A DNA stretch of 64,000 nt from an uncultured bacterium (GCA_963777505.1 CAVZQN010000004.1:1376001-1440000); one strand, 5' to 3'. Positions 939 through 59,556 are shown, numbered from the stretch's first letter. Program-made: numbers and translations. The notes: generated by a model from the letters alone, not told the origin.

Positions 939-2438
939 TTATTTCTTATCTCCCATCAGCTTTGACATTACACTGTGATGTCTGCCATACGCAAAATAGA
1001 TGATGAAACCGATACCCAGCCAGATAACTAAACGTAACCAGTTTTCAGCAGGGAGGGAGAACATCAACGTCAAACAGAGGATGATTCCCATAATAGGAAC
1101 GAAAGGAACAAATGGGACCTTGAACGGCCGTTCTGCTTCCGGATGTTTCTTGCGCATGATCAGTACCGCTGCACATACGATTACAAACGCTAACAACGTG
1201 CCGATGTTGACTAGCTCCGCCAAAATGCGCAACGGGAGGAATGCAGCAAGAATTGCAACAAAGATTCCGGTTAATATTGTCGATTTCCATGGCGTTCTAA
1301 ATTTCTCATGAACTGCGCCAAAAAAACTGTTCGGTACCAACCCATCTCTTGCCATTGCAAGCAAAACGCGTGGCTGGCTGAGCATCATTACCAACAACAC
1401 AGATGTAATTCCTGCCAGTGCGCCTAAAGAAATCAGGAATTGTGCCCAGGTAAGTCCAACTTGTCTAAAGGCATCAGAAACAGGCGCATCAATATTTATG
1501 TTTTTGTAAGGCACCATTCCTGTGAGTACTCCTGAAACAAGAATGTAAAGGATTGTACAAATAATCAGTGATGCGATGATGCCGATTGGGACATCTCTTT
1601 TTGGATTTTTTGCTTCTTCCGCATGCGTTGATACAGAATCAAATCCAATGTAAGCAAAGAATATTGTGGCGGCTCCAGCAAGCATGCCGAGTGGCTCACC
1701 TCCTAACCCTTCTTGTCCGAACAAGGTTTTTCCAAAGAAGCTGATCCCAGTCAGTCCGAATGGTGCAAAAGGTTTCCAGTTATCGGGATTTACGTAAAAG
1801 ATTCCAACACCGATCACCATGAGTACAATCGCAAGTTTGACGACGACCATGGCCGTATTAAAACTCGCGCTCTCCCGAATCCCTTTTACCAATATTACAG
1901 TCACCATGAGTGCAATCAGGATCGCAGGGAGATCAAACCATGTTTGTGTTGATACTAATCTCCCGACTGATGGATCGTAATCGAAAGGAGCGGTGGTAAA
2001 AATGTGTGGAATCTTGATGCCAAATATTCCTATAAAATCCTGAAAGTAGTGGGACCACCCATGTGCCACTGTTGCAGATCCTACTGCATATTCGAGCACA
2101 AGATCCCAACCCATTATCCAGGCGAATAGCTCACCGAGGGTGGCATACGCATATGTATAGGCAGAGCCAGCAACTGGAACCATCGATGCAAATTCGGCGT
2201 AACACAAAGCTGCCATAATACAAGCAAGTCCTGCCACTACAAACGACAACATCAGTGCCGGACCGGTTTTGTCATGCGCAGCCTGTCCTACTAAAACAAA
2301 AATTCCCGTGCCGATAATCGCACCAACACCGAGACTTGTCAGTTGAACAGGACCAAGAATTCGACGGAGACGATTATCGCTCTCCATCTCTTCATAAAGT
2401 AGTTTCAGAGGTTTTCTCGCCCAAAGTTGACTACCCAT
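939..2438 (-). CDS. APC-superfamily (CAT-like) amino acid permease
   Basis: LGVGAIIGTGIF, YAEFASMVPVAGSAYTY and FFAYIGFDSVST motifs; about 12-13 TM helices. Confidence 0.95.
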   Translation of the reverse strand: MGSQLWARKPLKLLYEEMESDNRLRRILGPVQLTSLGVGAIIGTGIFVLVGQAAHDKTGPALMLSFVVAGLACIMAALCYAEFASMVPVAGSAYTYAYATLGELFAWIMGWDLVLEYAVGSATVAHGWSHYFQDFIGIFGIKIPHIFTTAPFDYDPSVGRLVSTQTWFDLPAILIALMVTVILVKGIRESASFNTAMVVVKLAIVLMVIGVGIFYVNPDNWKPFAPFGLTGISFFGKTLFGQEGLGGEPLGMLAGAATIFFAYIGFDSVSTHAEEAKNPKRDVPIGIIASLIICTILYILVSGVLTGMVPYKNINIDAPVSDAFRQVGLTWAQFLISLGALAGITSVLLVMMLSQPRVLLAMARDGLVPNSFFGAVHEKFRTPWKSTILTGIFVAILAAFLPLRILAELVNIGTLLAFVIVCAAVLIMRKKHPEAERPFKVPFVPFVPIMGIILCLTLMFSLPAENWLRLVIWLGIGFIIYFAYGRHHSVMSKLMGDKK

Positions 2439-2479
2439 CGTGGGTTACTCCTTGTGGTGAAGTTTAATCGTTTATGTTT

Positions 2480-4297
2480 CTAGAAAATAAAAACACCTAC
2501 GAGGTAAGCTGCTGTGAACAATGCTAAAACGATAGCAATGTTGGAAGCCTTTTGTGCGTTGACTAAGTTCTCTCCCGTAACACCGGCTTCTTTCGCACGG
2601 TTAGCGCGAATGATAATGACTGGAAAAAGAATGATCAAGAACAATGCCAATGGAACAATAAGCCAACCTGAGGCGTCAAAGAACCAACCAGCAGGCGTTT
2701 TTCCAGATTGTCTTGCTGCATCAGCAAAATGAGTAATGAACATGAGAATGATTCCCCAGACGGCCAAAAATGCACCATTTGATGCTGTCCTCGCATCATG
2801 ATTTGCAGTATTTTCAGCAAGGTGTCGTCCGGTAAGTCGACTCTTCACGCTGCCATACAATACATATACGATGATTCCAACACTTAACCACGCTGTAAAA
2901 CGCAACCAGGATGTGGGCGGCAAATAGCCAATTAAAAACAAACATCCAGCCGCTGCAGTGACTGGAAGTACGATGCCGAATGGCACACGAAATGGTCTGT
3001 GTCTATTGGGATCTTTTTTACGAAGAATAATAATACCAATACAAACCAGGATGAACGCGAAAAGCGTTCCTATGTTTGTTAAGTCCACCATTTCTTCCAA
3101 ACTTGTAAAAAGTGTAAAAATTCCTACACCGATACCAGTCAGAATTGTGGATCCCCATGGAGTCTTATATTTCGGGTGAACTTTTCTAAAAATCGCAGGT
3201 AGTAATCCATCACGAGACATTGAAAAGAAAATGCGAGTTTGTCCCATTTGAAATACGAATAAAACTGCCGTGTGCGCAATAACAGATCCAGCAGCTACGA
3301 TCTTTAAAGCCCATCCGCGAATGTTTGCATACTCCATCGCGATCGTGAGTGGTTCCGCTTGTTGCGTAGATAGAAGATTTTTTAGCGCGGAATAAGGAAT
3401 CATCCCGGTAAAAACTGCAGCGATCAAAATATAGAAAAGAGTACAGATAATGAGTGAGGCAATAATACCAATAGGAAGATTTCGCTGAGGATCACGCGTT
3501 TCTTCTGCCGCCGTAGAGACGGCATCAAATCCTATGTAAGCGAAAAAGATGACAGCGGCGCCTCGAAAAACCCCCACCCACCCATTTGGCATGAAGGGTA
3601 CCCAGTTTCCCGAATCAATAGCCTTCCAGCTTATGACGACAAAGAAGGTCAGCACGATGAGCTTGAGAACAACCATTCCCGCGTTAAACCAGGCACTTTC
3701 GCGAATGCCGATGAGTAAGATCCCGGTGATAATTGCGATAATCAGCAATGCAAGTACATTCACGATTATTGGAACGCCGAATATATGTGGTGCGCTTTCC
3801 AATAAGCCTGGGATTTTGTGAGCCGTATGATAGTCAACCGATAACCAGTCAGGGATGATTATCCCAATTTCGCGGGATAGGGTTTTGAAATAATTACCCC
3901 AACTAATTGCTACTGCGACGTTACCTACGCCGTATTCAATAATGAGATCCCAACCGATAATCCACGCGATGACCTCACCCAATGTTGCATATGAATAGGT
4001 ATATGCAGACCCAGCAATGGGTACCATTGCCGCAATTTCGGCATAACAAAGGGCCACGAATGCGCAAACAATTCCAGCAATCACGAATGAAAGCATGAGC
4101 GCCGGCCCTGCTCCGACTCGTTGGAGATCACCAGCGGCCGCCGTTCCGATAGTGGCAAAAATTCCGGCACCTATGATAGCGCCAACACCAAGCAATGTGA
4201 TATGAACTGGACCGAGAACTCTTCGCAGGGACTGATTTGGTGCTTCAGATTCTTTTAGAATGTCGTCAAGGTTTTTGACGGAAAACATGCCGCGCAT
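2480..4297 (-). CDS. APC-superfamily amino acid permease, paralogue with a C-terminal membrane extension
   Basis: Same motifs (GAIIGAGIF, AGSAYTYSY, FFAYIGFDAVST). Start placed at ATG 4297, downstream of an AGGAGG RBS. Confidence 0.92.
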   Translation of the reverse strand: MRGMFSVKNLDDILKESEAPNQSLRRVLGPVHITLLGVGAIIGAGIFATIGTAAAGDLQRVGAGPALMLSFVIAGIVCAFVALCYAEIAAMVPIAGSAYTYSYATLGEVIAWIIGWDLIIEYGVGNVAVAISWGNYFKTLSREIGIIIPDWLSVDYHTAHKIPGLLESAPHIFGVPIIVNVLALLIIAIITGILLIGIRESAWFNAGMVVLKLIVLTFFVVISWKAIDSGNWVPFMPNGWVGVFRGAAVIFFAYIGFDAVSTAAEETRDPQRNLPIGIIASLIICTLFYILIAAVFTGMIPYSALKNLLSTQQAEPLTIAMEYANIRGWALKIVAAGSVIAHTAVLFVFQMGQTRIFFSMSRDGLLPAIFRKVHPKYKTPWGSTILTGIGVGIFTLFTSLEEMVDLTNIGTLFAFILVCIGIIILRKKDPNRHRPFRVPFGIVLPVTAAAGCLFLIGYLPPTSWLRFTAWLSVGIIVYVLYGSVKSRLTGRHLAENTANHDARTASNGAFLAVWGIILMFITHFADAARQSGKTPAGWFFDASGWLIVPLALFLIILFPVIIIRANRAKEAGVTGENLVNAQKASNIAIVLALFTAAYLVGVFIF

Positions 4298-4400
4298 GCG
4301 TATCCCTCCTGTCGACTGCAAACACTATATCAGAGAAATAAAAAGGAACATATGGGATTTTCTGACACTTGAAACCGTGATATATACTGGCCGCAAATAG

Positions 4401-4895
4401 ATGAAAATAAAAGCATCTGATACGGTTCGAGTGTATCGTACCGGCGGGGGAGGGCCATACTTATTTATTTCAATTCCGATGATGGCAATGGGTGCATATC
4501 TATTTTATCTTGGAGTCGCCGAATTAACGCACAACCGTGAACCGATCCCCTCCATCGTTTTCCTGATTATTGGAACGATTTTTCTGCTGATTGGAACCCT
4601 TCTTACTTTGTTTCGCGCAGGAGTTACTTTAGACCGGATTCAAGGGACTGCATCTCAGTGGCGTAAAATATTTCGTCACAAAACAAATGCCGTTCATTAT
4701 TTAAGGGAGTTTAGTTCGATTCAGCTTTTTATTCATCGGAGTGCAAAACGTACTGGACATATTGTTCAACTTGCCGGTGAGTCTAAGAAGTTAATTCTGT
4801 GCGATCTCTTGAATCTTGAAGCTGCAAAGCAATGTGCCGATGATGCGTCCAGCTTTTTGTCGCTGCCTGTCGTAGATAGCGCGAGTGAGGTTTAA
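4401..4895 (+). CDS. Hypothetical protein with two N-terminal TM helices and a beta-rich soluble domain
   Basis: 164-aa ORF filling the gap; two hydrophobic segments. Confidence 0.7.
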   Translation: MKIKASDTVRVYRTGGGGPYLFISIPMMAMGAYLFYLGVAELTHNREPIPSIVFLIIGTIFLLIGTLLTLFRAGVTLDRIQGTASQWRKIFRHKTNAVHYLREFSSIQLFIHRSAKRTGHIVQLAGESKKLILCDLLNLEAAKQCADDASSFLSLPVVDSASEV

Positions 4896-45254: not shown

Positions 45255-46367
45255 TCACGATTTTACTTCCTGTCCACATTTCAAGCAAAATTTTGCGCCA
45301 GGTGGCAATGCAGTTGAACACTTTGTGCAAGTTTGTGTCATAGATGTTCCGCATTTGCCGCAAAACTTTGCGTCCGGTGGAACTTGTGTTGTACATTTTG
45401 GACAAACAAGCCATGCCGCGATTTGCGCACCACAATTTGTGCAGAATTGAGCATCAGGCGCGAGTTGTGTTTTGCATTTATTACAAACTGGTCCAGTAAG
45501 AACAGGTTCCTGCGTTCCCTGTTGGCCAGCTTGCATCGATTGTGCAACCATTCCGGGCAGCATCATTCCTAAACCAGCGCCCATTCCCATACCCATACCT
45601 TGACCTGCGCCGCCACCTTCTTGTTTGGCAGCATCACCCACAGCCTGCGCCGCTTTATATTTCATATATTCATTCATGTTGCCCATAGCTGCCATGCCGC
45701 TTCGTTCATCGATAACCTTTTGAACTTCTTCAGGCGGAGTAATGGAATTGATGTAAAAATCTACAACTTCTAAACCATATTTTCCGAAATCTTCTTTAAT
45801 GCGCGTTTTCAACGCTACGCCAAGCTCATCATAATAACGAGGTAGATCCAGCAGTGTCTTCAGTGTTTCACCAAGGACATCAAACAATCGCGAAACGATT
45901 GAATCACGTAAAAAGCCTTCGATGTCGCCTGTCGTGTATCGTCCCTGAGTTCCAACAATTGTATTTACGAACAATTGTGGCTCGGTTACACGGATTGAAT
46001 AGACACCAAACGAACGCAAACGCACCATATTAAACTCAGTATCACGAAAAATTACCGCCTCTCGTGTTCCCCATTTCAGGTTAGTAAAAACCCGGCGGCT
46101 CACGAAATAAACTTCTGCTTTGAATGGTGAATCAAAACCAAATGGCCAACTCAATAGTTTTGTGAGGAATGGAAGATTCATCGTGGTTAAAGTGTGGCGG
46201 CCTGGGCCAAATGTATCGAGCGCTTTTCCATCTCGAAAAAATACTGCAGTCTGACTTTCATTAACGATCAATTGTGCGCCCATCTTAATTGAGTCAGAGG
46301 ACGAAAACCTGTAAACAAGTTCATCGCCGCCGCTATCTTCTTTCCATTGGATAACTTCAATCGCCAT
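45255..46367 (-). CDS. SPFH/band-7 domain protein (YdjI-like) with three C-terminal zinc ribbons
   Basis: GAQLIVNESQTAVF..GPGRHTL.T.NLP, KWGT; Gly/Met-rich linker; six CxxC motifs. Confidence 0.88.
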   Translation of the reverse strand: MAIEVIQWKEDSGGDELVYRFSSSDSIKMGAQLIVNESQTAVFFRDGKALDTFGPGRHTLTTMNLPFLTKLLSWPFGFDSPFKAEVYFVSRRVFTNLKWGTREAVIFRDTEFNMVRLRSFGVYSIRVTEPQLFVNTIVGTQGRYTTGDIEGFLRDSIVSRLFDVLGETLKTLLDLPRYYDELGVALKTRIKEDFGKYGLEVVDFYINSITPPEEVQKVIDERSGMAAMGNMNEYMKYKAAQAVGDAAKQEGGGAGQGMGMGMGAGLGMMLPGMVAQSMQAGQQGTQEPVLTGPVCNKCKTQLAPDAQFCTNCGAQIAAWLVCPKCTTQVPPDAKFCGKCGTSMTQTCTKCSTALPPGAKFCLKCGQEVKS

Positions 46368-46381
46368 CTCTTTATCTCCTT

Positions 46382-46852
46382 TTAACTTTCAAGCGAGAAT
46401 AAATGTTTACGATCATCCAGCTTTTGATCGATTGCTTGAATTTTGCTGTCCCATTCATGCGCGGCGTTTTGATCCTTCAAGCTTGTTTCCAGAGCTTCAA
46501 CATCGGATAACATCGAAAGATCAAGCTGATAAATTTGATCTAATTCGTTTTCCTGGATTTTTACCTGATCAAACAAGCCGGAATATCCGTAAGAAGCATG
46601 TCTGATTTGATTTGCTGATTTCATCATTTTTTGCGAAAGCCGATCGAGTTCTGCAAGTCCATCAAGTTTTCCTTGATTCACAAGAATGCGTTTCATTTCA
46701 TCCAGATTTCCGCGAGAGCGGTCGATTTTGTCAGCAAGATAGTCGCGAAAACGTTTATCAGTATCGCGGCGTGATTCTTTTTCGCGGTAACCCTTTAACC
46801 CAGGAATAGCATCAGCCAGTTTCTCCAAATAATTCTTTTCACTTTTTTCCAT
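46382..46852 (-). CDS. Conserved hypothetical helical protein co-oriented with the SPFH gene
   Basis: 156 aa; IPGLKGY..RRDTDK and ASYGYSGLFD motifs; 14 bp from the SPFH start. Confidence 0.75.
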   Translation of the reverse strand: MEKSEKNYLEKLADAIPGLKGYREKESRRDTDKRFRDYLADKIDRSRGNLDEMKRILVNQGKLDGLAELDRLSQKMMKSANQIRHASYGYSGLFDQVKIQENELDQIYQLDLSMLSDVEALETSLKDQNAAHEWDSKIQAIDQKLDDRKHLFSLES

Positions 46853-46952: not shown

Positions 46953-49481
46953 TTAATCGTTGATACCGCAGCAGCGTTTATATTTTTTTCCGGATCCGCA
47001 AGGGCATGGATCATTCCGGCCTACTTTTACTCCTTTACGTGCTGCAACCGCTACACCTTGTTCTAGCGATGGGCCTGAGAATTGCACTCTACGTGGAGCT
47101 CGTACTGGGCGTGGAGCCTCTTGCTCCTGAGGCGGCTGAGTTAAGAAAACATAACGGACGATATCATCTTCCATCCGGTTCATCATTTCTTCAAAGAGCT
47201 GGAATGATTCTTTTTTATACTCAACAAGCGGATCGCGCTGTCCGTATCCGCGAAATCCAATCCCTTCTTTCAAGTGGTCTAATGCATATAAATGATCTTT
47301 CCACTGTGTATCGATGACGTGCAACATCAGCATTCGTTCATGAAACGTCCAACGTTCATCACCGATTGCAGCTTTTTTATCAGTGTATTGTTGTTCAAGT
47401 TTTTGATACAGGAAGTCATGAATCTGTTCTTCATTTTCGAGCTGACGTAATCTTTCTTGATCTACGTCCATTCCGAATTGTCCATGTAAGTCGATCGCAA
47501 GATTTTGCATATCCCAATCACGAGGGTCACTTTTTTCTTGAATGCGTTGGCCGATCTGGTACTTCAAAATATCTTCCGAAAGTTCGAGTATGTATTCGGA
47601 ATGATTTGATTCTTCAAGAACTTTCCGGCGTAAGCCATAGATGGCTTCACGCTGCTTGTTCATAACATCATCGTATTCAAGCAAATGTTTGCGGATTTCA
47701 AAATTGCGTGTTTCAACTTGTTTTTGCGCATGCTCGATCGATCTCGTCACAAGCTTGTGTTCAATCGGGACACCTTCTTCCATTCCGAGGCGTTCCATAA
47801 CGCCTGAAATTCGATCGCTGCCAAAAATGCGCATCAAATCATCTTCGAGTGACAGATAAAATCGAGACGAACCAGGATCGCCTTGACGTCCTGCGCGGCC
47901 TCGAAGCTGATTATCGATCCGTCTTGCCTCGTGACGCTCTGTGCCGATAATGTGAAGTCCATCTGCTTGTGCTACTCCTTCACCAAGCACGATATCAGTT
48001 CCGCGGCCTGCCATATTTGTAGCAATTGTGACTGCGTTTGGTTGTCCGGCTTGAGCTACGATTTCAGCTTCCTTCTCATGATATTTTGCGTTCAATACAA
48101 CATGTTTTATGCCGGCACGTTTTAGCATCGTTGAAAGCCGTTCCGACTTTTCAATGCTCACAGTGCCTACGAGCGCCGGACGCTTTGACGATTGCAACTG
48201 TTTGATTTCTTCAACAACAGCCTCAAATTTTTCACGCTCAGTCCGATACACAACATCAGGATACGAAACCCGGATTAAATCCCTGTTGGTCGGAATCACC
48301 ATTACGTCAAGCTCATAAATTTTCCCGAATTCTACAGCTTCCGTATCTGCGGTACCTGTCATGCCGGCAAGCTTGTCGTACATTCTGAAGTAATTTTGGA
48401 GGGTGATGGTTGCAAGGGTTTGGTTTTCCGATTCAATCTTGACGCCTTCTTTTGCTTCCAGAGCTTGATGCAAGCCATCGCTATAACGACGACCCGGCAT
48501 CAGACGACCGGTGAATTCATCTACAATAATGACCTGCCCATCTTTAACGACATAATCATCATCAAGACCAAATAAAGCGTGTGCTTTCAATCCTTGATGA
48601 ATGTGATGAAGCCAATCCATATTGGACGGATCGTAAAGGTTGTCTATCCCAAGCATGCGCTCACTATGTGCAATCCCTTCTTCAGTCAAAGTTACAGAAT
48701 TTGCTTTTTCATCGATCGTGTAATCGGAATCTTTCTTAAGGCGTGGGATGATTCGATCGATTTTGTAATATTTATCCGTACTTTCTTCGGCTGGACCTGA
48801 AATAATAAGTGGTGTTCGGGCTTCATCAATCAGGATGCTATCGACTTCATCAACGATCGCATAATGATGAGCTGTTTGAACGTAATCGCCTAAATCAAAC
48901 TTCATGTTATCGCGCAAGTAGTCGAAGCCGAATTCGTTGTTTGTACCGTAGGCAATGTGACTGCGATATGCGACCTGCCGATCTTGCACGGATGAATCAT
49001 GTTGAATGATGCCGACTGAAAGTCCGAGTGCGTTGTAGATAGGTCCCATCCATTCGGAGTCGCGGCGTGCGAGATAATCATTCACAGTAACGATGTGGAC
49101 GCCCTTTCCGCTAAGCGCATTCAAATAGGCAGGCAATGTTGCAACAAGGGTTTTACCTTCACCGGTTGCCATTTCAGCAATTTTGCCTTCATGCAAAACC
49201 ATTCCGCCAATTAGTTGCACATCAAAATGGCGCATGTTCCGTACGCGTTTTGCAACCTCGCGGACGACTGCAAAAGCTTCAGGAAGAATATCGTCGAGCG
49301 TTGCGCCCTGGCTCAATTTCTGCTGAAACTCAGCAGTCTTTTGAGGAAAGTCATTCAGACTCAACTTCTGAACGCTTGCTTCAAATGAGCTAATCTTTTC
49401 GACCATGGGCCACAGTTTCTTGAGCTCGCGCTCATTCTTAGTGCCTACGATTTTGGTTAAGAAATACCCGAGTACTGTCAT
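46953..49481 (-). CDS. secA: Preprotein translocase ATPase SecA
   Basis: [46 protein letters not shown] and the SEC-C motif [18 protein letters not shown]. Confidence 0.98.
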
Positions 49482-49626: not shown

Positions 49627-49962
49627 ATGGGGATTCTGATCAACGTTTTCGGCGTGATCTTGATTCTACTCGGGTTGATCTTCCTGATCGGGTTTCAAGG
49701 CCAGATCGGAAGATTGGTCATCGGAATTCTGCTTGTTGGTGGCGGTGTTTTGCTCCTAGCAGCATCACGGTTGCGCCCACGTCAGACAACTTTCGTTCAA
49801 CAATTGCACTTTACAGGTGATATCACTCCACAGGAACTCAAGTGCAAAAACTGTGGATCCACTCTCTCAAACAAATCCGTAGCCGTACGAGCTGGAGCCG
49901 TTTTCATTTCCTGTGAATCTTGCGGTACGCAGTACCAATTAGAGGAAGCGCCGAAATGGTAA
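49627..49962 (+). CDS. Small membrane protein with two TM helices and a C-terminal zinc ribbon
   Basis: Two hydrophobic helices, then CKNCG..CESCG, ending EEAPKW; stop overlaps the radical SAM start. Confidence 0.8.
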   Translation: MGILINVFGVILILLGLIFLIGFQGQIGRLVIGILLVGGGVLLLAASRLRPRQTTFVQQLHFTGDITPQELKCKNCGSTLSNKSVAVRAGAVFISCESCGTQYQLEEAPKW

Positions 49963-51434
49963 ACATCAGTTCATTGTTTCAAATCTTTAAGCCGGAGAAC
50001 GTCCTTCCCGATCCGGATTTATATACATACCACCTGACTGATTCCCGTGGGTATTTTCGGAGAGTTCATTTGCGAATTGAACCTGACAGACAAGGTGTTC
50101 TTTTTGTGGATGTGACTGATGTGATTCATCTCAATCCTACGGCGACTCAAATTGCATGGTTTGCACTTCAGAAGAAATCGGAAAAGGACACGATTCGCTA
50201 TTACCGGAAAAATTTTCGCGGCGAGTCAAAGCAGATCCAGAACGACATTCAAAGCATTTACAAGATGATTGATCACTTAGTGAGCGCTGATGGATGTCCT
50301 ACATGCGGACTCGATTTTATGGAACGGCGTCCACTGTTTTCAACACGCGCTCGTGCTCCATATAAAGCTGATGTTGCTTTAACGTATGGTTGTAACAACG
50401 CATGCAATCATTGCTATAACGCTCCGTCGCATTTAGGAATGGCCTCTCTGCAGGTTGAAGATTGGAAAAAAGTATTGATGCTGCTCAAGAAGAAAGGAGT
50501 GCCGCACATCATATTCACCGGCGGTGAAGCAACACTTCATCCAGATCTTCCTGAATTAGTAGAGTATGCGGACAAACTGGGTCAAATTACGGGTCTAAAT
50601 TCAAATGGGCGCCGCTTCTCCCAACCATCGTTTGTCGAAACCTTGCGCAAGGCCGGCCTCAATCATGTTCAGGTCACGCTCTCTTCAAGCCGTGCGCGAA
50701 TTCACGATCAAATCAATGGCGTCTCCGCATTTTCACAAACAGTAAAAGGAATCGAAAATTGTCTTTCCGGCGGTTTGCATGCAATAACAAATACAACTCT
50801 TATGAAATCAAACCGCGATCATGCGGAAGAGATTATCCAGTTCATCCATCGGTTGGGAATTCGGACATTTGCGATGAATGGAATGATTTATTCCGGCGGA
50901 GGTTATTGTGATCCGGAGGCGATTCCAGAAGAAGAGTTGCCACCTTTATTGATTCGAGTTCGCGATACAGCTCAGGAACTGGGTATGAAATTCTTATGGT
51001 ATACGCCTACCGAATATTGCCGAATGAACCCAATCGAACTTGAGATTGGAGCAAAGCGATGCAACGCTGCCGAGTATTCAATTTGTATCGAACCCAATGG
51101 AGATGTTTTACCCTGTCAATCTTTTTATGTATCGGCTGGGAACATTTTGAATGATTCCTGGGAAAAAATCTGGAATGGTGATTTGTTTCGCAGTTTTCGT
51201 GATCGCGAATTGGACCCTCGCTGGGCTGGATTGCCAGAAAAGTGCTGGGAGTGTCCTGAATTAAGTATTTGCGGCGGAGGATGTCGTATTGAACGCGAGG
51301 CGCGCGACGGCGAAACAGTTCATCAAGAAGGATCCTGTTCAAGCGGCAAAACTCAGAATCCGAGCTTTATTCCTATTGAATCACTTCAGCATATTGGAAA
51401 ACGCGCCGCAGGCAGGGGAGCAGGAGTCCGATGA
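49956..51434 (+). CDS. Radical SAM/SPASM enzyme with N-terminal PqqD/RRE-like domain
   Basis: CNNACNHC, FTGGE, SPASM RCNAA..CIEPNGDVLPC and CWECPELSICGGGC; N-terminal HLRIEPD..HLNPTATQIAW; AGAGG RBS before ATG 49956. Confidence 0.92.
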   Translation: MVNISSLFQIFKPENVLPDPDLYTYHLTDSRGYFRRVHLRIEPDRQGVLFVDVTDVIHLNPTATQIAWFALQKKSEKDTIRYYRKNFRGESKQIQNDIQSIYKMIDHLVSADGCPTCGLDFMERRPLFSTRARAPYKADVALTYGCNNACNHCYNAPSHLGMASLQVEDWKKVLMLLKKKGVPHIIFTGGEATLHPDLPELVEYADKLGQITGLNSNGRRFSQPSFVETLRKAGLNHVQVTLSSSRARIHDQINGVSAFSQTVKGIENCLSGGLHAITNTTLMKSNRDHAEEIIQFIHRLGIRTFAMNGMIYSGGGYCDPEAIPEEELPPLLIRVRDTAQELGMKFLWYTPTEYCRMNPIELEIGAKRCNAAEYSICIEPNGDVLPCQSFYVSAGNILNDSWEKIWNGDLFRSFRDRELDPRWAGLPEKCWECPELSICGGGCRIEREARDGETVHQEGSCSSGKTQNPSFIPIESLQHIGKRAAGRGAGVR

Positions 51435-52690
51435 GTGTGACATTTGGCGACCGGCTGAAAAAATACTTTATCCCTGAAATAGAGACAAACCAAAGCGGTG
51501 TCTATTCTTTTCGCCGTGAAAAAGGTGGAGCGATTACACGATTTCATTTAAGAATTGAAAAAAATGGCGCGGGAATGCTTCTGGCGAATTCTTCTGTTGC
51601 GTGCAGGCTTTCCCCATCAGGAGCTTTAATCGCAAAATCTTTACTTCAAGGGGAGAATGAAAACAAAATTCAATCCGACATCCGGAAAAATTTTCGTGAA
51701 GTACGCAGCGAAGAATTATCTCAAGACATTGAACGTGTCCGGCAATTTATTGAAACCCTTTCGATTCCTGATGATGCCTATCCGATTTTTAATTTGCAGG
51801 ATCCAGCACTTGAAACTCCGCGCAGCCTGATCGCGCCCTTTCATGCACAAATGCATGTCGGCTCGCCAGAAACTGTAAATCCGATCTTACAGAAACTGTG
51901 GGATGCGGGAATCCCTCATGTAACCTTCGAAGTAAGCAACATGCCTTCAATCGATGATTCCATTCGGAATGTTCAACGCGCAGAGGATATTGGCATGATT
52001 TGCGGAGTGCGCGCTCAGGGAAGCTGGTTTCAACAAAATGATGTCATGAAACGTCTTGCTCTTGCCGGAATCGACTACATTGTCACTCCGATTGTGAGTT
52101 CCGAAAAGGCCAATCACGACAAACTATTGGGTGCTGAAGATTATTCGGATACTTTGAAATGCTTCAGTGATTGCATTCAATGGGAAATATGTCCTGTAGC
52201 AGAGGTTGCAATCTTTAACGAAAACAAAAAAGACATTCCGAAACTTATTGGGACACTGAAATCGAAGAATGTAAGAAACATTCATTGCTTTGCGGTTGCT
52301 GAACCGTTGACCGAAGGGCTCAGTAGTAACGCAATTATTCAAACGGCTGTAGAAGTTCTTGAAGCTGCTAGCAAATTTGAAACACGTGTGATCTGGCTTC
52401 CTCCCGTGAGCCGGTCAACAAGCCTCGAAGAAGTTGTGAAAACGGGACCAAGAACCGCCGGAGATGTTTCTGTTTTTGTGGATCATTCAGGAAATGTATA
52501 CCCTTCGCGCGGACCGAAGGTTTCTGCAGGTAATCTTTTACAAATTCCCTGGAAAGAAATCTGGAGTTCGGGAGTTTTTCGGCAGTATCGTGATCGCGTT
52601 GAATCGAATACACACTGCAGTATCTGCCCAGGCATGGAAATCTGTGCAGCCGATTGCCCGGGCGATCCCAAAGGATGGGATACGGTATGA
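51431..52690 (+). CDS. Degenerate radical SAM/SPASM paralogue lacking CxxxCxxC
   Basis: Collinear with the upstream enzyme (HLRIE, GIPHV, GNVYP, SAGN.L..W..IW..F), but of the Fe-S motifs only the terminal CSICPGMEICAADC remains. Confidence 0.8.
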   Translation: MSVTFGDRLKKYFIPEIETNQSGVYSFRREKGGAITRFHLRIEKNGAGMLLANSSVACRLSPSGALIAKSLLQGENENKIQSDIRKNFREVRSEELSQDIERVRQFIETLSIPDDAYPIFNLQDPALETPRSLIAPFHAQMHVGSPETVNPILQKLWDAGIPHVTFEVSNMPSIDDSIRNVQRAEDIGMICGVRAQGSWFQQNDVMKRLALAGIDYIVTPIVSSEKANHDKLLGAEDYSDTLKCFSDCIQWEICPVAEVAIFNENKKDIPKLIGTLKSKNVRNIHCFAVAEPLTEGLSSNAIIQTAVEVLEAASKFETRVIWLPPVSRSTSLEEVVKTGPRTAGDVSVFVDHSGNVYPSRGPKVSAGNLLQIPWKEIWSSGVFRQYRDRVESNTHCSICPGMEICAADCPGDPKGWDTV

Positions 52691-54445
52691 AAGCTGCGAT
52701 CCGAATTTGGCTTAAGTACTATTGCTATAGTACTACTATTATCGCAAATCGCTTTAACGCAGAGCTATAAATTTGAAGTTCCCGAAGTCTTATTGGATGC
52801 GAAAATCAATCAAGACAGCACTGTGGAGCTCTACTATGAAATTCAGTTTCGCAACCTACCTGGCTCTCACGCGATTGATTATGTAGATATCGGCCTTCCT
52901 GATGTAGATCTTGATTTCGAGGTCATTGAAGCTGGGTGTGACGGCGTACCAGCAGCATCCTCTGGACCTTCGGAATATATACATCCTGGCATCGCAGTAG
53001 GACTTCAAAATCCGATCCCGGCTGGCGAATCGGGTAAATTTTATTATCGAATGCTCATCCGCAACAAAATGGTCTATCAAGACACCACTCGCGATAATTA
53101 CGCATCCTTCCAAATCACGCCTACATGGTTTGGCTCAGATTATGTTGTTGGCGTTTCGACTGTGACAATTCGTGCCATCTTGCCGGAAGGTGTATTGCCT
53201 TCCGAAGTGCTCAGTCAAAAAGTGCCGTTCAACAGAACTGAGACAGTGGATGGAAGAACCGCGGCAATTTTTAAACAAAATTATTTCTTTGCTTCGGCAT
53301 ATAAAGTTGGCGTTTCATTTCCATCCAGAAACATGACGGGCGTAATTAAGCAAACAACCTGGGATTTAATCGTGCAGTGGTATGAAAGGAACAAATTCTA
53401 CTTCAACTTTTTATTCATTCCTCTGACATTGTTTTTTACTGGTTGGGCAATGTTTCGAGCTGGAGGAAAAGGCTGTTTTGGAATCTTGCTTTTTTTCGTC
53501 CTGGGCTATTTCAACTTCGGTGAATATGTCGGACGAGGTCGACTCTTTTTGATATCACTGATGGCGGCTGGCTTTGTGGAGTTTCTGCGCAGGCTGCGGC
53601 GTCCTTCTTATTTGCCCGCGCTTGTCAGTGTTGAAGGCGGTGGTATTCGAAGAGGGCTAACAGCACCTGAAGCCGCCGTTTTGCTTGAGATTCCTGCGAG
53701 CAAGGTTGTTACGCTAATTCTGTTCGGTCTAATGAAAAAAGGGTTCATTCGTGAAAAGGAAAAAGATCCGCTTGAATTTGAGAAGATTAGTCCTCGACCA
53801 GATGATTCAGTTCTTCATGACTACGATACGCAAGCTTTAGAGATACTTGCAAGACCTTCGAATTATTCCCAGTTGAAGCCGTATCCTGTTAATGAAAGAG
53901 ATTTTGGTCCGGTGATTGATACGATTGTTGAATCTTTGAAGACAAAACTAAAAGGTCATAATCTTGATGAAACGCGTTCTTACTATAAACAGATCGTTTC
54001 GCGTGCATGGGTCGAAGCTAAGGAGATTGGGGATGTTCAGGCATGGAATAAAAAAATGGATGAAAAAATCGATTGGATGATGCTTGATTCTGATTTTGAA
54101 GATCGTTTTCGTCCTTATAACAATCGCTATACACCTCGTTCTAGCTTTCCATCGAGTGGCTCAGGGTCTTTCGGAACGAGAACCACTTCTGGACCTTCGG
54201 TGGGTGGCCCAGGAATTACAGACATTGCCGGATCCATGGCAGCATGGATGCAAACTACAGCAGGATCTGTCGTTTCTTCAGTTGTACCCAAAGACGCCGC
54301 CGCTCCTTTGTTTGATGGCGCAAAACTGATGAATTCAACTGGTGGTTCTGGTGGTAGCGGCCGTAGTAGTGGTGGTGGAAGCAGTTGTGCGTGTGCATGC
54401 GCGGGATGCGCCTGTGCGTGCGCATGTGCCGGCGGCGGACGTTAA
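52687..54445 (+). CDS. DUF2207-like membrane protein with Gly/Ser linker and C-terminal (Cys-Ala)n tail; +1 frameshift at about 52712-52715 in the signal peptide
   Basis: ATGA overlap with the upstream gene; one deletion restores MKAAIRIWLSTIAIVLLLSQIALTQSYKFEV; three TM helices; GLTAPEAAVLL; tail SSCACACAGCACACACAGGGR. Confidence 0.85.
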
Positions 54446-54519
54446 AAGATCAAAGATGAAAAATCAAAAATAAAAAATGAGCTCCAGTTTTTTATCTTTT
54501 ATTTTTCATCTTTGATCTT
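54446..54519. repeat. A-rich heptamer-repeat palindrome
   Basis: Perfect 19-bp arms aagatcaaagatgaaaaat / atttttcatctttgatctt filling the intergenic space. Confidence 0.8.
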
Positions 54520-54522
54520 GAA

Positions 54523-55227
54523 ATGTTTAGCCTTCCACAACATGAATTGCTACAACTGCAAGCTGAATGGCTTGCCGATGCACGTGCGCGCATATTGCGG
54601 CTTGCAGAAATCGCGCGCCGTAGAAGTGTTCTGGATCTCGGATGTGGCTCAGGCGTTACACTTCAAGAACTGCAACAGCGAAGTAGCGGTTCCGTTATTG
54701 CACTCGATCTGCAAATTGAAGCTCTTAGAAAATTAAAAAACGCAGTTAACGGCGATGCTCTTCATCTTCCATTTATTGATCAGAGTTTTGATCTGATTTT
54801 CAGTCAGAATTTTTTCCTATGGGTTCCGCAATTGGAGTCTGTAGTTCAACAAATCTATCGATTACTTGAACCCGGCGGCGTATTTGTAAGTATTGAACCG
54901 GATTATGGAGGACTCATCGAATTCCCTGCAGAAATCGAATCACAATTATTGTGGATCAATGGATTGCTTCGTGCGGGAGCGGATCCATTCATCGGCCGCA
55001 AGTTGCCTATTCTTTTTCAAGAGCCGAAATGGAGCGTGCGAGTTGAACTTCTTCCTAGAGTATTTTCTGCGAATCTCGATCGATTCCGTTTTCTTGAAGA
55101 TTTACCGCTGACTGCTGACGAACAGTTAGAATTGGTTCAAATCCGCAAAAACGTAACAGAAATTCCCGCACATTCCCAACTTGTTCATCTTCCTTATTTC
55201 CTGCTTCTCGCGGAAAAACGGATGTAA
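54523..55227 (+). CDS. Class I SAM-dependent methyltransferase
   Basis: VLDLGCGSG, IALD, GDALHLPF..SFDLI and LEPGG motifs. Confidence 0.9.
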   Translation: MFSLPQHELLQLQAEWLADARARILRLAEIARRRSVLDLGCGSGVTLQELQQRSSGSVIALDLQIEALRKLKNAVNGDALHLPFIDQSFDLIFSQNFFLWVPQLESVVQQIYRLLEPGGVFVSIEPDYGGLIEFPAEIESQLLWINGLLRAGADPFIGRKLPILFQEPKWSVRVELLPRVFSANLDRFRFLEDLPLTADEQLELVQIRKNVTEIPAHSQLVHLPYFLLLAEKRM

Positions 55228-55357: not shown

Positions 55358-56458
55358 ATGTTAAGGATTCAAAAAAGAGCGGCAGGAAGCCGTGCAAGGC
55401 TCGGACTGGTTTCGACCCCACGTGGCACATTTCCTACCCCCGCATTCATGCCGGTTGGAACTCAGGCCGCAGTAAAAGGGCTGTTACCCGTTCAACTCAA
55501 GGAAATCGGAACATCCATCGTACTGGCTAACACGTATCATCTATATTTGCGGCCAGGGAGTGATGTAATTCGAAAATTGGGTGGACTCCATCGTTTCATG
55601 GGGTGGGATGGTCCGATCTTAACTGACAGTGGTGGATATCAGGTTTTTAGTTTGAGTAAATTACGGAAAGTTACGCCAAACGGTGTGAGGTTTAAATCTC
55701 ATATAGATGGATCAGAACATGAATTTACACCGGAGCTTTCAATGAGTGTGCAGAAAGATCTGGGATCGGATCTTGTAATGGTATTGGATGAATGTCCTGT
55801 TTTTCCTACAAGTTATGATGATGCAAAACGATCCATGGATCTAACACATCGTTGGGCTGAACGCTGTAAACAAACTCCGCTTGGAGAAGGTCAAGCTTTG
55901 CTTGGAATTGTTCAGGGAAGTACATATCCGGAATTGCGCGAAGAAAGCGCTCGTACGCTTTCAGCAATGGAATTTGATTCGTACGCGCTTGGCGGTTTAT
56001 GTTTGGGAGAAAGCAAAGAATTACGCCATGACTTGATTGATGCAGCAATTGGACATTTGCCTGATGAAAAACTTCATTATTTAATGGGAGCTGGCACTCC
56101 TGAAGATATTGTCAAATCTGTTGATCAAGGGATCGACATTTTTGATTGTGTGCTTCCTACCCGGAACGCCAGAAATGGCTATTTGTTTACTTCAAAGGGA
56201 CCGGTGATCATCAAACAAAGCAAGTATCGTGAAGATCCAGAACCGCTGGATCCAGAATGTGATTGTTATGTTTGTAAGAATTTTTCGAGAGGCTATTTAA
56301 GGCATTTGTTCATGGCTGGTGAAATAAATTCTTCAATGCTAAATACCTATCACAATGTCTACTATTATTTGAACCTAATGAAAGAAATTCGCGAACACAT
56401 TGCCGCTGATACATTCAGCGATTTTTTTACCGCAAAGACGCAGAGAGGTGAGTTATGA
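55358..56458 (+). CDS. tgt: Queuine tRNA-ribosyltransferase
   Basis: TPAFMPVGT, NTYHL, TDSGGYQVFS, DCVLPTRNARNG and CDCYVC..H zinc site. Confidence 0.97.
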   Translation: MLRIQKRAAGSRARLGLVSTPRGTFPTPAFMPVGTQAAVKGLLPVQLKEIGTSIVLANTYHLYLRPGSDVIRKLGGLHRFMGWDGPILTDSGGYQVFSLSKLRKVTPNGVRFKSHIDGSEHEFTPELSMSVQKDLGSDLVMVLDECPVFPTSYDDAKRSMDLTHRWAERCKQTPLGEGQALLGIVQGSTYPELREESARTLSAMEFDSYALGGLCLGESKELRHDLIDAAIGHLPDEKLHYLMGAGTPEDIVKSVDQGIDIFDCVLPTRNARNGYLFTSKGPVIIKQSKYREDPEPLDPECDCYVCKNFSRGYLRHLFMAGEINSSMLNTYHNVYYYLNLMKEIREHIAADTFSDFFTAKTQRGEL

Positions 56459-56787
56459 ATTGGTTTTTGGCTGCAGATGCGCCACCGCCTGGTGGAGGCA
56501 TGATGCCTGCACTACTGACGCTTTTACCGTGGTTATTTTTTATTGTTGTGTTTTATTACTTTTTTGTTGCAGCACCGATGAAGAAGAAACAAAAAGCATT
56601 TCAAGAGATGATGTCCAATATTAAAACTGGAGACAGAGTCGTTACAAATGGCGGAATGTATGGTGTTGTTACTGGAATGACTGAGAAAACAGTCAAGCTT
56701 CGTATTGCAAACAATGTCGTAGTCGATATGGATAAGTCGGCGATTGCCGGAATGGCGACGGACGAAATTAAGGAGGAGAAGAAGTAA
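56455..56787 (+). CDS. yajC: Preprotein translocase subunit YajC
   Basis: FYYFF..P.KK and GDRVVTNGGMYG; position between tgt and secD. Confidence 0.95.
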   Translation: MNWFLAADAPPPGGGMMPALLTLLPWLFFIVVFYYFFVAAPMKKKQKAFQEMMSNIKTGDRVVTNGGMYGVVTGMTEKTVKLRIANNVVVDMDKSAIAGMATDEIKEEKK

Positions 56788-56821
56788 GCGGACAACTGTC
56801 CGTTGAATTGGAGAAGGACTT

Positions 56822-58378
56822 ATGAAGAATCTGCAGTGGAAAATAATACTTGTAGTTGCGCTTGCGGCGATCGCAGCATACGGCATCTATCCGCCTGAAA
56901 AAAGAATTAAGTTAGGTCTTGATTTGAAAGGGGGAATCCATCTTGTTGGTGAAGTAAAACTGGATGAAGCCCTTGCTGGATATTCAGATCAATTTATCGA
57001 TACGCTTCGTACTGAGCTTCAGGAAAAAAATGTTCCTGTAAAAAATATTACGCGTCAGACGAATACCTCTATTTTGATAGATGGGATTCCTCGTGACCGC
57101 GAAGCCAATTTGAAAAAGATCATGGAGCCGTTCGGCGAATGGGAACTTGGTTCGTTTCAGGATGGCAAAGTTATCGCTTCATTGCGTCAGGGTGTTATCA
57201 ATTCAAAAGGAGAGGAAGCTCTTAAGCTTGCCCTTCAAATCATTCGCGAACGTGTCGATACGTTTGGAGTTTCTGAATCTGTCGTTCAAAGGCAGGGACT
57301 AACCGGCAGTAGAGTGATTGTTCAATTGCCAGGTGTCGAAGATACGGATCGTGTGAAAAGGTTAATCGAAGGGACTGCAAAACTCGAATTAAAACTTGTA
57401 ACAGCAGGGCCGGCTCCGACGCGTGAAGCTCTTCTTGCAGCACAAAACGGTCAGGCACCTCCCGGAACAGAGGTTTTGCCACATAACGGTGTTCGTGACG
57501 ATGGAAGTGCTTTCGCAGAATATTTACTCGTTAACCGCAGCGCGGTTATTTCAGGCGAAGAACTCCAATCCGCTGCGCGTTCGGTTGATGAATATGGACG
57601 TCCTGCGGTTAGTTTTAACATTAAGTCGGGTTCAGCAGAAAAATTTGGACGCTTCACTGAATCCAATATAGGAAAGAGTCTTGCAATTGTTTTAGATTCG
57701 AAGGTTCAATCGTATCCCACAATTCAGGCGCGTATCAGTAACAGTGGAATCATTACCGGCCAATTTACAATTGAAGAGGCAAATGATCTGGGTGTAATGC
57801 TTCAATCCGGTGCACTTCCTGCTGGTTTACGCTTCCTTGAACAACGTGTCGTCGGACCTTCACTCGGCCTGGATTCAATCCGTAAGGGTGTATTAGCTTG
57901 TTTAATCGGTGCGGCAATCATCTTTTTGTTCATGCTGATTTATTACAAATTCAGCGGCGTTAACGCAGTGATTGCAATGTTATTAAACCTGCTATTTTTG
58001 ATGGCATTGATGACTTACTTTGAAGCGACTTTCACATTGCCAGGAATTGCCGGTATTATTTTGTCCGTTGCAATGTCCGTTGATGCAAACGTCTTGATTT
58101 TTGAACGCATTAAAGAAGATTTGCGTCTGGGAAAAACGGCGCGTTCGGCAATACAATCCGGATTCAGCAAAGCCTTCTGGCCGATATTTGATTCAAATCT
58201 CACAGTAATTATTGCCGGGATTTTCCTTTACTGGTTTGGAACAACGAATGTGAAGGGATTTGCGGTGACTCTCATTATCGGTATTACTTGTTCGATGTTT
58301 ACGGCAATTTTTGTCTCACGATTAATTTATGAAATTATTTTAAGCCGTAAGCGAAAAGTTGAGACAATAAGCATTTAG
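56822..58378 (+). CDS. secD: Protein translocase subunit SecD
   Basis: LGLDLKGG, RVDTFGVSE, VQLPG, SGALP, VGPSLG and VDANVLIFERIKE. Confidence 0.97.
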   Translation: MKNLQWKIILVVALAAIAAYGIYPPEKRIKLGLDLKGGIHLVGEVKLDEALAGYSDQFIDTLRTELQEKNVPVKNITRQTNTSILIDGIPRDREANLKKIMEPFGEWELGSFQDGKVIASLRQGVINSKGEEALKLALQIIRERVDTFGVSESVVQRQGLTGSRVIVQLPGVEDTDRVKRLIEGTAKLELKLVTAGPAPTREALLAAQNGQAPPGTEVLPHNGVRDDGSAFAEYLLVNRSAVISGEELQSAARSVDEYGRPAVSFNIKSGSAEKFGRFTESNIGKSLAIVLDSKVQSYPTIQARISNSGIITGQFTIEEANDLGVMLQSGALPAGLRFLEQRVVGPSLGLDSIRKGVLACLIGAAIIFLFMLIYYKFSGVNAVIAMLLNLLFLMALMTYFEATFTLPGIAGIILSVAMSVDANVLIFERIKEDLRLGKTARSAIQSGFSKAFWPIFDSNLTVIIAGIFLYWFGTTNVKGFAVTLIIGITCSMFTAIFVSRLIYEIILSRKRKVETISI

Positions 58379-58386
58379 AGGAAATT

Positions 58387-59556
58387 ATGGATCTGATTAA
58401 GAATACGAATATTGATTTTCTAAAATATAAGATCCCTGCACTTTTGTTATCACTGGCGATCATTGTTGCTGGTTTAGTTTTGATAGCTACAAAAGGCCTA
58501 CGCTATGGCGTAGATTTCGCAGGTGGTACGGCGATTCATGTGAAATTCAGGAAAGAAATTCCTGTGGATAAAGTGCGCAACACTTTACGCGATGCGGGAT
58601 TCCGTGATAGTGCCGTTCAAACTTTCAACGATCGCACTCAAATGCTAATACGGCTTTCACAAAAAGTTTCGTCCGGAGATCAAGTCGAAGCGTTGTCAAA
58701 TCGTGTAACAGAAGCCTTGTTATCGGCGATGGGCGGCTCAACATTGCCTGCAGGTAAACGGGATCTAAATCGGGCATCGGAGAAACAACTTCAGGAATAT
58801 TTTTCTGTTCGCGATCCCTGGGGTACCAAAAACCCTGAAAGTTATACAAGTGAAACAAAAAAGTTAGTCAATCTGCGAGTTCAAAATGCCGGCTTAATGC
58901 CAGCATTTGATAAGTTAGTTGGAATCGATCCAAAAATTATCGAATCGTTGCGCGAACAATATGTAGTCAGCGATATAGCGATTCTGAGCACTGAATATGT
59001 TGGACCGCAGGTTGGAGCTGAGCTGCGAGAGCAAGCCACACTCGCAATCATTTGGTCCGTTATCGCTTTGATGATTTATGTCTGGTTCCGTTTCCAATTA
59101 GTCTGGGGCGTTTCCGCAGTTTTGTGTCTCGTTCATGACGTCCTTGTTACTTTGGCGTTCTTTGCATTCTTCGATCGCGAAATCTCTTTAACTGTTGTTG
59201 CTGCGTTTTTAACGATTGTGGGTTATTCGATTAATGACACAATTGTTATCTATGATCGCGTTCGGGAGAACCTCCGAACGATGCGGACTCTCCCGCTTGA
59301 AGTCGTGATCAACACAACCTTAAATCAGATGCTCGGACGAACCCTGATCATCAACGGCCTCGTGATGGTAGTGGTACTTGTACTCTATTTCTTTGGCGGT
59401 GAAGTCATTAACGACTTTGCATTCGCAATGCTTGTAGGTTCAATTGCAGGTACATATTCAACAATTTATATCGCTAGCGCTTTAATCGTTTTCTATGATC
59501 GCTATTTCGGCAAAAAAGCGCAGCCTGCAAAAACCCGAGTCATTAAGGCTTCCTGA
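58387..59556 (+). CDS. secF: Protein translocase subunit SecF, with an inserted periplasmic segment
   Basis: GVDFAGG, VGPQVG, HDV and GYSINDTIVIYDRVREN. Confidence 0.96.
   Translation: MDLIKNTNIDFLKYKIPALLLSLAIIVAGLVLIATKGLRYGVDFAGGTAIHVKFRKEIPVDKVRNTLRDAGFRDSAVQTFNDRTQMLIRLSQKVSSGDQVEALSNRVTEALLSAMGGSTLPAGKRDLNRASEKQLQEYFSVRDPWGTKNPESYTSETKKLVNLRVQNAGLMPAFDKLVGIDPKIIESLREQYVVSDIAILSTEYVGPQVGAELREQATLAIIWSVIALMIYVWFRFQLVWGVSAVLCLVHDVLVTLAFFAFFDREISLTVVAAFLTIVGYSINDTIVIYDRVRENLRTMRTLPLEVVINTTLNQMLGRTLIINGLVMVVVLVLYFFGGEVINDFAFAMLVGSIAGTYSTIYIASALIVFYDRYFGKKAQPAKTRVIKAS

Follow-up and report, generated by a model that had tools for sequence, protein, structure and literature searches.

A cassette of five genes and its Cys-Ala tail

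A stretch of 64 000 nucleotides from an uncultured bacterium (GCA_963777505.1, CAVZQN010000004.1:1376001–1440000), called the window here and taken at its full length, holds at positions 49627–55227 what its sequence identifies as one copy of a widespread, unnamed cassette of five genes. A first-pass annotation of this locus had proposed that a pair of radical S-adenosylmethionine (SAM) proteins acts on the Cys-Ala repeat at the end of a membrane protein. All five open reading frames (ORFs) lie on the plus strand: a small Zn-ribbon membrane protein of 111 amino acids (49627–49962), an active enzyme of 492 amino acids from the ATG at 49956 (49956–51434), a catalytically dead paralogue of 419 amino acids (51431–52690), the tail-bearing membrane protein of ∼585 amino acids if read through (52687–54445) and a class I SAM-dependent methyltransferase of 234 amino acids (54523–55227), which is a frequent last gene of the cassette. 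The active enzyme, assigned from its ORF, Pfam matches and a structural model, combines a recognition element (RRE) of the kind used on peptides that are made by ribosomes and modified after translation (RiPPs) with a radical-SAM barrel and a SPASM domain. The four overlapping genes had been described as translationally coupled, and the three overlaps are exact, with ATGGTAA at 49956–49962 and ATGA at both 51431–51434 and 52687–52690; the methyltransferase ORF follows downstream. The C-terminus of the membrane protein reads ...GGSGGSGRSSGGGSS-CACACAGCACACACAGGGR, with GGGSS directly before CACACAGCACACACAGGGR, and this invariant tail of 19 codons (54386–54442) is the proposed modification site. 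In keeping with the earlier statement that precursor peptide, protease and exporter are missing from the operon, no Cys-rich short ORF was found in the intergenic gaps of the cassette, which leaves no alternative substrate at the locus, and in Pfam and NCBIfam comparisons none of the five proteins showed a protease or transporter domain.

Within its protein family the tail is conserved better than any other segment and is no chance run of low complexity. Among 7998 scored candidates of a protein search, 252 were related to the window protein at E ≤ 0.001, and the tail was checked in the best 120 of these 252: it was present in 117, as CACACAGCACACACAGGGR in 72, as CACAGCACACACAGGGR in 44 and as CAGCACACACAGGGR in one, the three others being a fragment of 394 amino acids, a near-variant and a protein whose end is frameshifted. 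Outside the tail the best homologues are only 30–73% identical to the window protein. An alignment of 29 homologues, from which the frameshifted row was left out, gave a mean majority-residue frequency of 0.95 for the tail, 0.76 for a winged-helix segment and 0.61 for the outer domain. A profile search of 1.84 billion cluster representatives matched 1034 clusters at E ≤ 0.001, 763 at E ≤ 1e-10 and 392 at E ≤ 1e-30; of the best 150 clusters, in which the tail was inspected, 111 carry the canonical tail, 15 a variant and 24 none (mostly short fragments). Several of the variants have the central Ala-Gly replaced by Ala-Ser, Val-Ser or Asp-Ser. Two types can be told apart: type A tails follow (CA)1–3-G-(CA)4-GGGR and occur with the gene order of the window, and type B tails follow (CA)3–5-G-(CA)3-GGGR with the order Zn-ribbon protein, membrane protein, enzyme, paralogue and methyltransferase. 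Tails measure 17–19 residues and contain five to eight closely spaced cysteines. Every tail codon varies synonymously (66 + 14 genome tails), each Cys being written TGC 34–41 times and TGT 25–32 times among the 66, and this free variation indicates that selection acts on the peptide rather than on a repeat in the DNA.

Metagenome contigs were scanned with a degenerate DNA pattern made for the type A tail; this gave at least 134 stretches, from which 80 loci with 80 distinct tail-ending frames were taken. All 50 frames with an upstream in-frame stop measure 423–833 amino acids from stop to stop, the other 30 running off their contigs, and the tail was found on no short peptide among these 50 complete open frames in the metagenome loci. 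The idea that a core peptide is fused to a membrane protein gains further support from these frames and from leader-like motifs upstream of the tail (see below); the enzyme-substrate relation is one that we infer.

Linkage was followed in 80 loci from species-representative genomes, 72 of which hold a tail-bearing protein, 40 of these tail-bearing loci with at least 4.5 kb on both sides; because loci were partly found by an eight-residue tail pattern, this set cannot measure the frequency of the tail. A radical-SAM-like gene lies within 6 kb in 62 of the 72 tail-bearing loci. For the 40 full-flank loci the same distance includes any radical-SAM-like gene in 38, two of them in 32, a Zn-ribbon gene in 34 and a methyltransferase in 28. 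Five genomes without a radical-SAM gene in the flank were searched further: in four, an orthologue of the paralogue (E 5e-67 to 6e-82) adjoins a radical-SAM-like gene on another contig, and the fifth has just one radical-SAM-like match near a contig end. At one further locus (L080) the 4.8 kb downstream of the tail protein contain no radical-SAM gene.

The same picture emerged from 301 genomes sampled evenly across the window's phylum, a set chosen without regard to the tail. The membrane protein was present at E ≤ 1e-10 in 38 of them, and in 37 of the 38 a radical-SAM-like match stands beside it on the same contig, the miss (G121) having a truncated membrane-protein match. Orthologues of the enzyme at E ≤ 1e-100 occur in 36 of the 301 genomes, all within the 38, and G083 adds a contig-truncated match. 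Among the 263 genomes without the membrane protein, a set which includes one genome flagged unpublished (G054), no enzyme orthologue reached E ≤ 1e-100; the best match, at 2.8e-71, misses most of the N-domain. These genomes are related, so that the counts are not independent events. In a genome of the window's own genus that is 96% complete (G046), neither the membrane protein nor either of the two radical-SAM genes had a match, which together with the patchy distribution indicates that the cassette genes come and go together, even among close relatives. The first-pass annotation, which would have been undermined had tail-bearing homologues usually lacked the radical-SAM genes, is not refuted by either sample: they keep them. 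According to record titles, carriers belong to Acidobacteriota, Chloroflexota, Planctomycetota, Armatimonadota, Hydrogenedentota, Nitrospirota, Elusimicrobiota and myxobacteria-like lineages, and the cassette is conserved across at least eight bacterial phyla.

The search for further conserved members gave none. When the 3943 other open frames of the 80 loci were compared all against all, most of the resulting clusters overlapped the five genes, in a different frame or on the opposite strand, and were read as shadow frames. Additions are lineage-specific: an ABC ATPase in 14 loci, and kinase, LiaI/LiaF-like and MetH-activation-like proteins. At L001, enzyme and paralogue are separated by genes for a Ser/Thr protein kinase, a membrane protein like LiaI/LiaF and a protein like the MetH-activation domain (2051–4744). 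The MetH-activation-like family was the sole insert family traced, and it was found in seven loci (L001–L004, L007, L009 and L057).

Folds of the proteins and state of the window copy

The enzyme gene (49956–51434) matches Pfam Radical_SAM (PF04055) at 4.6e-27 with 95.7 bits against a cut-off of 29.5, and SPASM (PF13186/TIGR04085) at 2.7e-12 with 47.2 bits against 21.5. In an alignment of 28 homologues, C146, C150 and C153 of the CX3CX2C cluster motif (50391–50414) and eight SPASM cysteines are invariant, and the description of the enzyme as an intact radical SAM/SPASM protein holds with this full cysteine set. Its AlphaFold2 model (predicted local distance difference test, pLDDT, 84) shows an N-domain of ∼residues 20–110 (50013–50285) in which four strands (21–59) are followed by three helices (61–110). 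Foldseek returned SkfB (8e-19), SuiB and CteB as top matches of the model. SuiB superposes with Z 27.2 and a root-mean-square deviation of 4.2 over 373 residues, model residues 23–453 lying on chain residues 4–428 with the SuiB RRE included; SkfB reaches Z 27.0 and CteB Z 24.8–25.5. The enzymes anSME, PqqE and ChlB align only from about residue 131–135 of the model.

The N-terminus had been called PqqD/RRE-like in the first-pass annotation, and the comparisons made for the domain point the same way. A profile of 28 N-domains from enzyme and paralogue, compared with all PDB sequences, retrieved the lasso-peptide RRE protein TfuB1 at E 1.4e-4 and TbiB1 at E 0.27. Pfam PqqD (PF05402) matches 21 of the 28 family N-domains at E ≤ 1 (best 2.6e-8); the window enzyme's own N-domain, at 13.9 bits, stays under the cut-off of 23.4. 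An R-x-H-L-R strand is invariant in the N-domains of both proteins. Both N-termini are thus assigned as RRE/PqqD-like from profile matches and the SuiB superposition, and they are predicted to bind peptide.

No NCBIfam equivalog was reached by the enzyme. Its top matches are the tetrapyrrole-modifying AhbD/NirJ2 families, with scores far under their cut-offs (best heme b synthase, 120 versus 500 bits), and it likewise falls outside the sactipeptide and ranthipeptide maturase families, with 86.8 of 850 bits for AlbA (NF012164), 69.5 of 300 for SkfB (TIGR04403) and 83.1 of 625 for StsB (NF045574). A complex prediction that combined the enzyme with three 4Fe-4S clusters, SAM and membrane-protein residues 505–589, run without controls, scored 0.04 and 0.01, values that bear on binding in neither direction.

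For the paralogue (51431–52690) Pfam finds SPASM alone, at 25.7 bits against a cut-off of 21.5, with no Radical_SAM match; an RRE-like N-terminus precedes a barrel without CX3CX2C. Across 24 homologues the radical-SAM cysteines are absent and the SPASM motif CX2CX5CX3C is retained in type A cassettes, while type B paralogues contain just one or two cysteines in total. The label 'dead paralogue' is therefore right for the radical-SAM cluster and too sweeping for the SPASM region, where the motif is still there in the window protein. Mean column identity over the 24 sequences is 52%, which argues for a maintained non-catalytic partner and not for a decaying gene. The paralogue does not belong to the pseudo-SAM/SPASM family TIGR04347 (29.1 versus 525 bits).

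The two accessory genes could be classified more briefly. The first ORF has two N-terminal hydrophobic transmembrane helices and a C-terminal CxxC...CxxC with weak zinc-ribbon Pfam matches, as expected from its description as a zinc-ribbon membrane protein. The methyltransferase belongs to the class I family (Methyltransf_11, PF08241, 2.1e-19, 70.4 bits against 21.2) and reaches no equivalog, the best being the DVU_1556 family with 67.6 versus 155 bits.

The architecture of the membrane protein was taken from a model of P0001, a relative of 589 amino acids and 99% identity to the window protein (pLDDT 72.8). A signal-peptide helix (3–27) is followed by an outer beta-sandwich (33–214), three membrane helices (228–307), a winged-helix-like unit with the family motif EGGGIKRGLTAPEAA (330–370), a helical domain (382–481) and, from 490 to the end, a low-confidence region in which a helix (514–536) covers DVA.SFAGW.ENT and no order is seen in the tail. 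In fold the beta-sandwich is similar to the luminal domain of OST1/ribophorin-I, a subunit of oligosaccharyltransferase (Z 14.3 and 13.7) and also the N-domain of M1 aminopeptidases (Z 11–12, Foldseek 1e-8). The winged-helix unit and helical domain together span P0001 residues 327–523, ∼53650–54240 in the window; GOLPH3/Vps74, the only fold match for this region (Z 8.5 over 162 residues, and 6.4), was set aside, being too weak for a helical domain to be assigned a fold. With the signal peptide cleaved off and RRLRRP following the last of three hydrophobic segments, the positive-inside rule would place the C-terminal ∼280 residues inside, and according to this topology model the tail is predicted to face the cytoplasm, within reach of an oxygen-sensitive Fe-S enzyme that has no signal peptide. 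Between the helical domain and the tail lie two conserved motifs, DVA.SFAGW.ENT and LSG.D, and then a Gly/Ser spacer. The first of them (54215–54283), for which the model shows the helix only at low confidence, reaches a segment conservation of 0.65 compared with 0.41–0.44 in the neighbouring linkers.

The membrane protein is single copy in the window's genome and belongs to no Pfam or NCBIfam family (NCBIfam, 0 at E ≤ 0.01), TIGR04222 included at that threshold. Kinship with DUF2207 was considered, as look-alike clusters from a language-model search carry PF09972/PF20990 (0.93–0.96). It was not borne out: the Pfam models give no match for the window protein at E ≤ 0.01 or for 29 homologues at E ≤ 1, and the genome-wide search misses the gene.

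In some Chloroflexota (L048–L053) paralogues of the predicted cytoplasmic domain occur that are 335–350 amino acids long, lack the tail and keep the motif EGGGIKRGL. In four of these six loci their last residues are ATFYG or ATYYG; L048 9876–12475 (minus strand) and L049 6090–8768 are examples.

The window's own copy of the membrane-protein gene is frameshifted. Its ATG at 52687 is out of frame with the protein and opens a frame that ends after 27 codons, and the main frame, open from 52691, contains no ATG, GTG or TTG until the TTG at 52793; a start there would lose the signal peptide, the typical core of which is encoded by 52691–52792. P0001 reads through, beginning with the residues of the ATG frame and going on with those of the main frame, which places one extra base in the signal-peptide codons at ∼52709–52715. 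A 151-nucleotide soil-metagenome contig equals 52596–52747 minus one base at ∼52709, so that the frame is restored (weak evidence, from a single contig at depth 2). The other 584 codons contain no stop. Of the ∼585-amino acid membrane protein described in the first-pass annotation, the tail is found as given, and the reading frame is interrupted by this single base.

Upstream of the cassette lies what we take to be secA (46953–49481, minus strand), and downstream follows presumably a tgt-yajC-secD-secF block (55358–59556), with tgt itself at 55358–56458, names which we assigned from the look of the translations. G+C content is 0.43–0.47 within the cassette and 0.41–0.46 in the flanks, which gives no sign of a recent island. 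A scan of the window for promoters and terminators yielded counts not above those of shuffled sequence. An imperfect inverted repeat (54439–54526; 39 nucleotides, 87% complementary, 10 nucleotides between the arms, very A+T-rich) takes up all of the space that separates the stop of the membrane protein from the start of the methyltransferase; it could form a hairpin for transcript processing or attenuation. Also seen upstream were an SPFH/Band-7 protein that ends in three zinc ribbons (45255–46852, minus strand; Pfam Band_7_1, 4.3e-72) and a 156-amino acid protein with weak resemblance to the LIMLP_15305 family, with secA between these genes and the cassette. Five sequencing runs matched the window with small shares (0.05–0.17), no RNA run among them, and metagenome contigs covered only parts of 52300–53300.

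A proposed substrate tail and its alternatives

The last ∼110 residues of the membrane protein look like a RiPP precursor, with leader, spacer and core, fused to a full-size protein. What the data establish is a tight functional link, together with the domain folds, the invariance of the tail and its confinement to this protein family. On balance we think it probable that the tail is the enzyme's substrate, the modification being made on the full-size membrane protein. One or both RRE domains, in enzyme and paralogue, would bind the conserved leader-like motifs, and the inactive paralogue would pair with the enzyme as a non-catalytic partner or chaperone. The active enzyme would then cleave SAM and abstract a hydrogen atom in the tail. 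That the products are specifically Cys-to-Ala thioether bridges is a suggestion we make tentatively and with more doubt than confidence: Cys sulfur would be joined to Ala, at its alpha or beta carbon, across a hairpin which turns at the central Gly and sets each Cys opposite an Ala. Thioethers are favoured among possible chemistries because the nearest folds are thioether or crosslink maturases, because only Cys, Ala and Gly side chains are on offer and because Ala is as invariant as Cys, which chelation alone would not require. The methyltransferase may add a further modification, and the Zn-ribbon protein may tether the enzymes to the membrane. A ladder of such sactionine- or lanthionine-like bridges on the cytoplasmic tail of an integral membrane protein might, though we would not count on it, form a permanent structured or metal- or redox-active device. 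It is also conceivable, and again doubtful, that this device would couple the outside beta-sandwich to the cytoplasm, RiPP chemistry then not serving a secreted natural product. Signalling, metal handling or a releasable product, named earlier as uses of the tail, are guesses.

Several observations weigh against this proposal. The closest maturase families are reached only far under their cut-offs, so that their chemistry is not transferable here, and CxC repeats occur in metal-binding proteins too. The tail-less paralogues of L048–L053 directly adjoin the best-scoring active enzyme in five of the six loci, flank being available, and no tail-bearing copy was found in two of the four genomes concerned, both 2.5 Mb and of unknown completeness; an enzyme beside such a paralogue means that the cytoplasmic domain may be the real docking partner of the enzymes. 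The paralogue is absent at L037, L038 and L079 and the methyltransferase in 12 of the 40 full-flank loci, so these two genes are not obligatory. Finally, the membrane-protein gene is frameshifted in this very window.

These points lead to other explanations. The membrane protein could be a scaffold or regulator that docks the enzyme pair, the real substrate being, for example, a lipid, some small molecule or a peptide whose gene lies elsewhere. The tail-less cytoplasmic-domain paralogues next to the best-scoring enzyme would fit such a role, as would the rank of the winged-helix segment as second most conserved and the tetrapyrrole-modifying AhbD/NirJ2 families as top NCBIfam matches, far under cut-off though they are. 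However, a scaffold leaves unexplained the near-absolute conservation of the tail and its strict co-distribution with the enzyme clade, no conserved extra gene for a possible substrate was found across the 80 loci, and the other two of the four genomes with tail-less paralogues (G306 and G308) carry a tail-bearing copy elsewhere. We regard this explanation as improbable, and we give equally little credence to a second one, in which the tail is a metallothionein-like metal- or Fe-S-binding module. The radical-SAM pair would use this module as scaffold or donor for a cluster or a sulfur cofactor, or would respond to its metal or redox state. The number and close spacing of the tail cysteines and the several Fe-S clusters of SPASM enzymes are in line with this, and the nearest published analogy, the Cys-rich tails of TIGR04222 proteins associated with MNIO enzymes, is set in a copper-handling context in the parts of the source drawn on here (PMC12452194). 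Chelation, however, does not account for the invariant Ala and Gly between and after the cysteines, the RRE on both proteins points to peptide recognition, and a metal transporter or chaperone domain is missing from the five proteins.

A separate question concerns the window alone, where the frameshift may be real and the local copy defunct, its membrane protein not made or not exported. The ATG at 52687, which is out of frame, and the missing start codons before 52793 speak for this, and loss does occur in the lineage, as the absence of membrane protein and both radical-SAM genes from the same-genus genome shows. On the other side, 584 open codons and 99% identity to an intact relative suggest no decay or a very recent event, the four neighbouring cassette genes are intact, and the soil contig, identical over 151 nucleotides except for one base, carries the intact frame and is compatible with an assembly error in the window. 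A defunct copy is therefore unlikely in our view, if still the more serious of these three alternatives, and modification of the tail by the enzyme is the explanation we prefer for the cassette.

Relation to known systems

SuiB, SkfB and CteB, which act in the streptide, sactipeptide and ranthipeptide systems, share with the window enzyme a build in three parts: RRE, radical-SAM barrel and a SPASM domain that carries two auxiliary clusters. A Cys-rich target is common to the thioether-forming maturases and to the cassette, where it is presumed. In contrast to these systems, the presumed substrate here is the C-terminus of a ∼600-amino acid integral membrane protein and not a short exported peptide, no protease or exporter belongs to the cassette, an inactive paralogue is nearly always present and all NCBIfam scores stay under the cut-offs. 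The catalytic part is also close to that of anSME (Z 25.4–25.9 over model residues 133–454), likewise a SPASM enzyme working on a full-length protein: it modifies Cys or Ser of the whole protein to a single formylglycine in a sulfatase motif. However, anSME has no RRE, its alignment beginning at model residue 133, and there is no sulfatase here. Cluster-less radical-SAM-like proteins that keep SPASM features beside an active enzyme are known from TIGR04347 and TIGR04304 (GeoRSP SPASM-domain); the paralogue scores 29.1 of 525 bits with the former and 15.4 of 300 with the latter and carries an RRE-like domain of its own. DUF2207 proteins consist of an outer beta-domain, transmembrane helices, a cytoplasmic part and a Gly-rich end, and the window protein has a similar overall layout by the look-alike search only, with no Pfam match.

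The nearest published idea, as far as the parts of the source considered here go, is the bioinformatic proposal on MNIO (DUF692) enzymes and TIGR04222 membrane proteins (Microb Genom 2025, PMC12452194). There too an enzyme of RiPP type is linked to a full-size membrane protein whose low-complexity, Gly/Ser- and Cys-rich C-terminal tail is the proposed substrate (PMC12452194). The enzyme class differs, MNIO there and radical SAM here, and the same parts of that paper describe TIGR04222 tails that vary and are predicted to lie in the periplasm, with a loose link, a third of TIGR04222 genomes being without MNIO (PMC12452194); the tail of the present family is invariant, is predicted to face the cytoplasm and has a near-absolute link to its enzyme. 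No paper on the cassette or the tail sequence was found in the open-access literature and bioRxiv.

RRE-guided radical-SAM enzymes are known as producers of small secreted peptides. In the cassette the same machinery is apparently aimed at the end of a 600-residue membrane protein, and if this is true it would be the first case in which an RRE guides the maturation of an integral membrane protein. With three to five genes and a short, defined tail as proposed substrate, the system is small and hence directly testable. If the tail is modified, RiPP-type chemistry would extend to protein maturation with a new post-translational modification, and a function would be provided for many 'hypothetical' membrane proteins and for a class of inactive radical-SAM paralogues.

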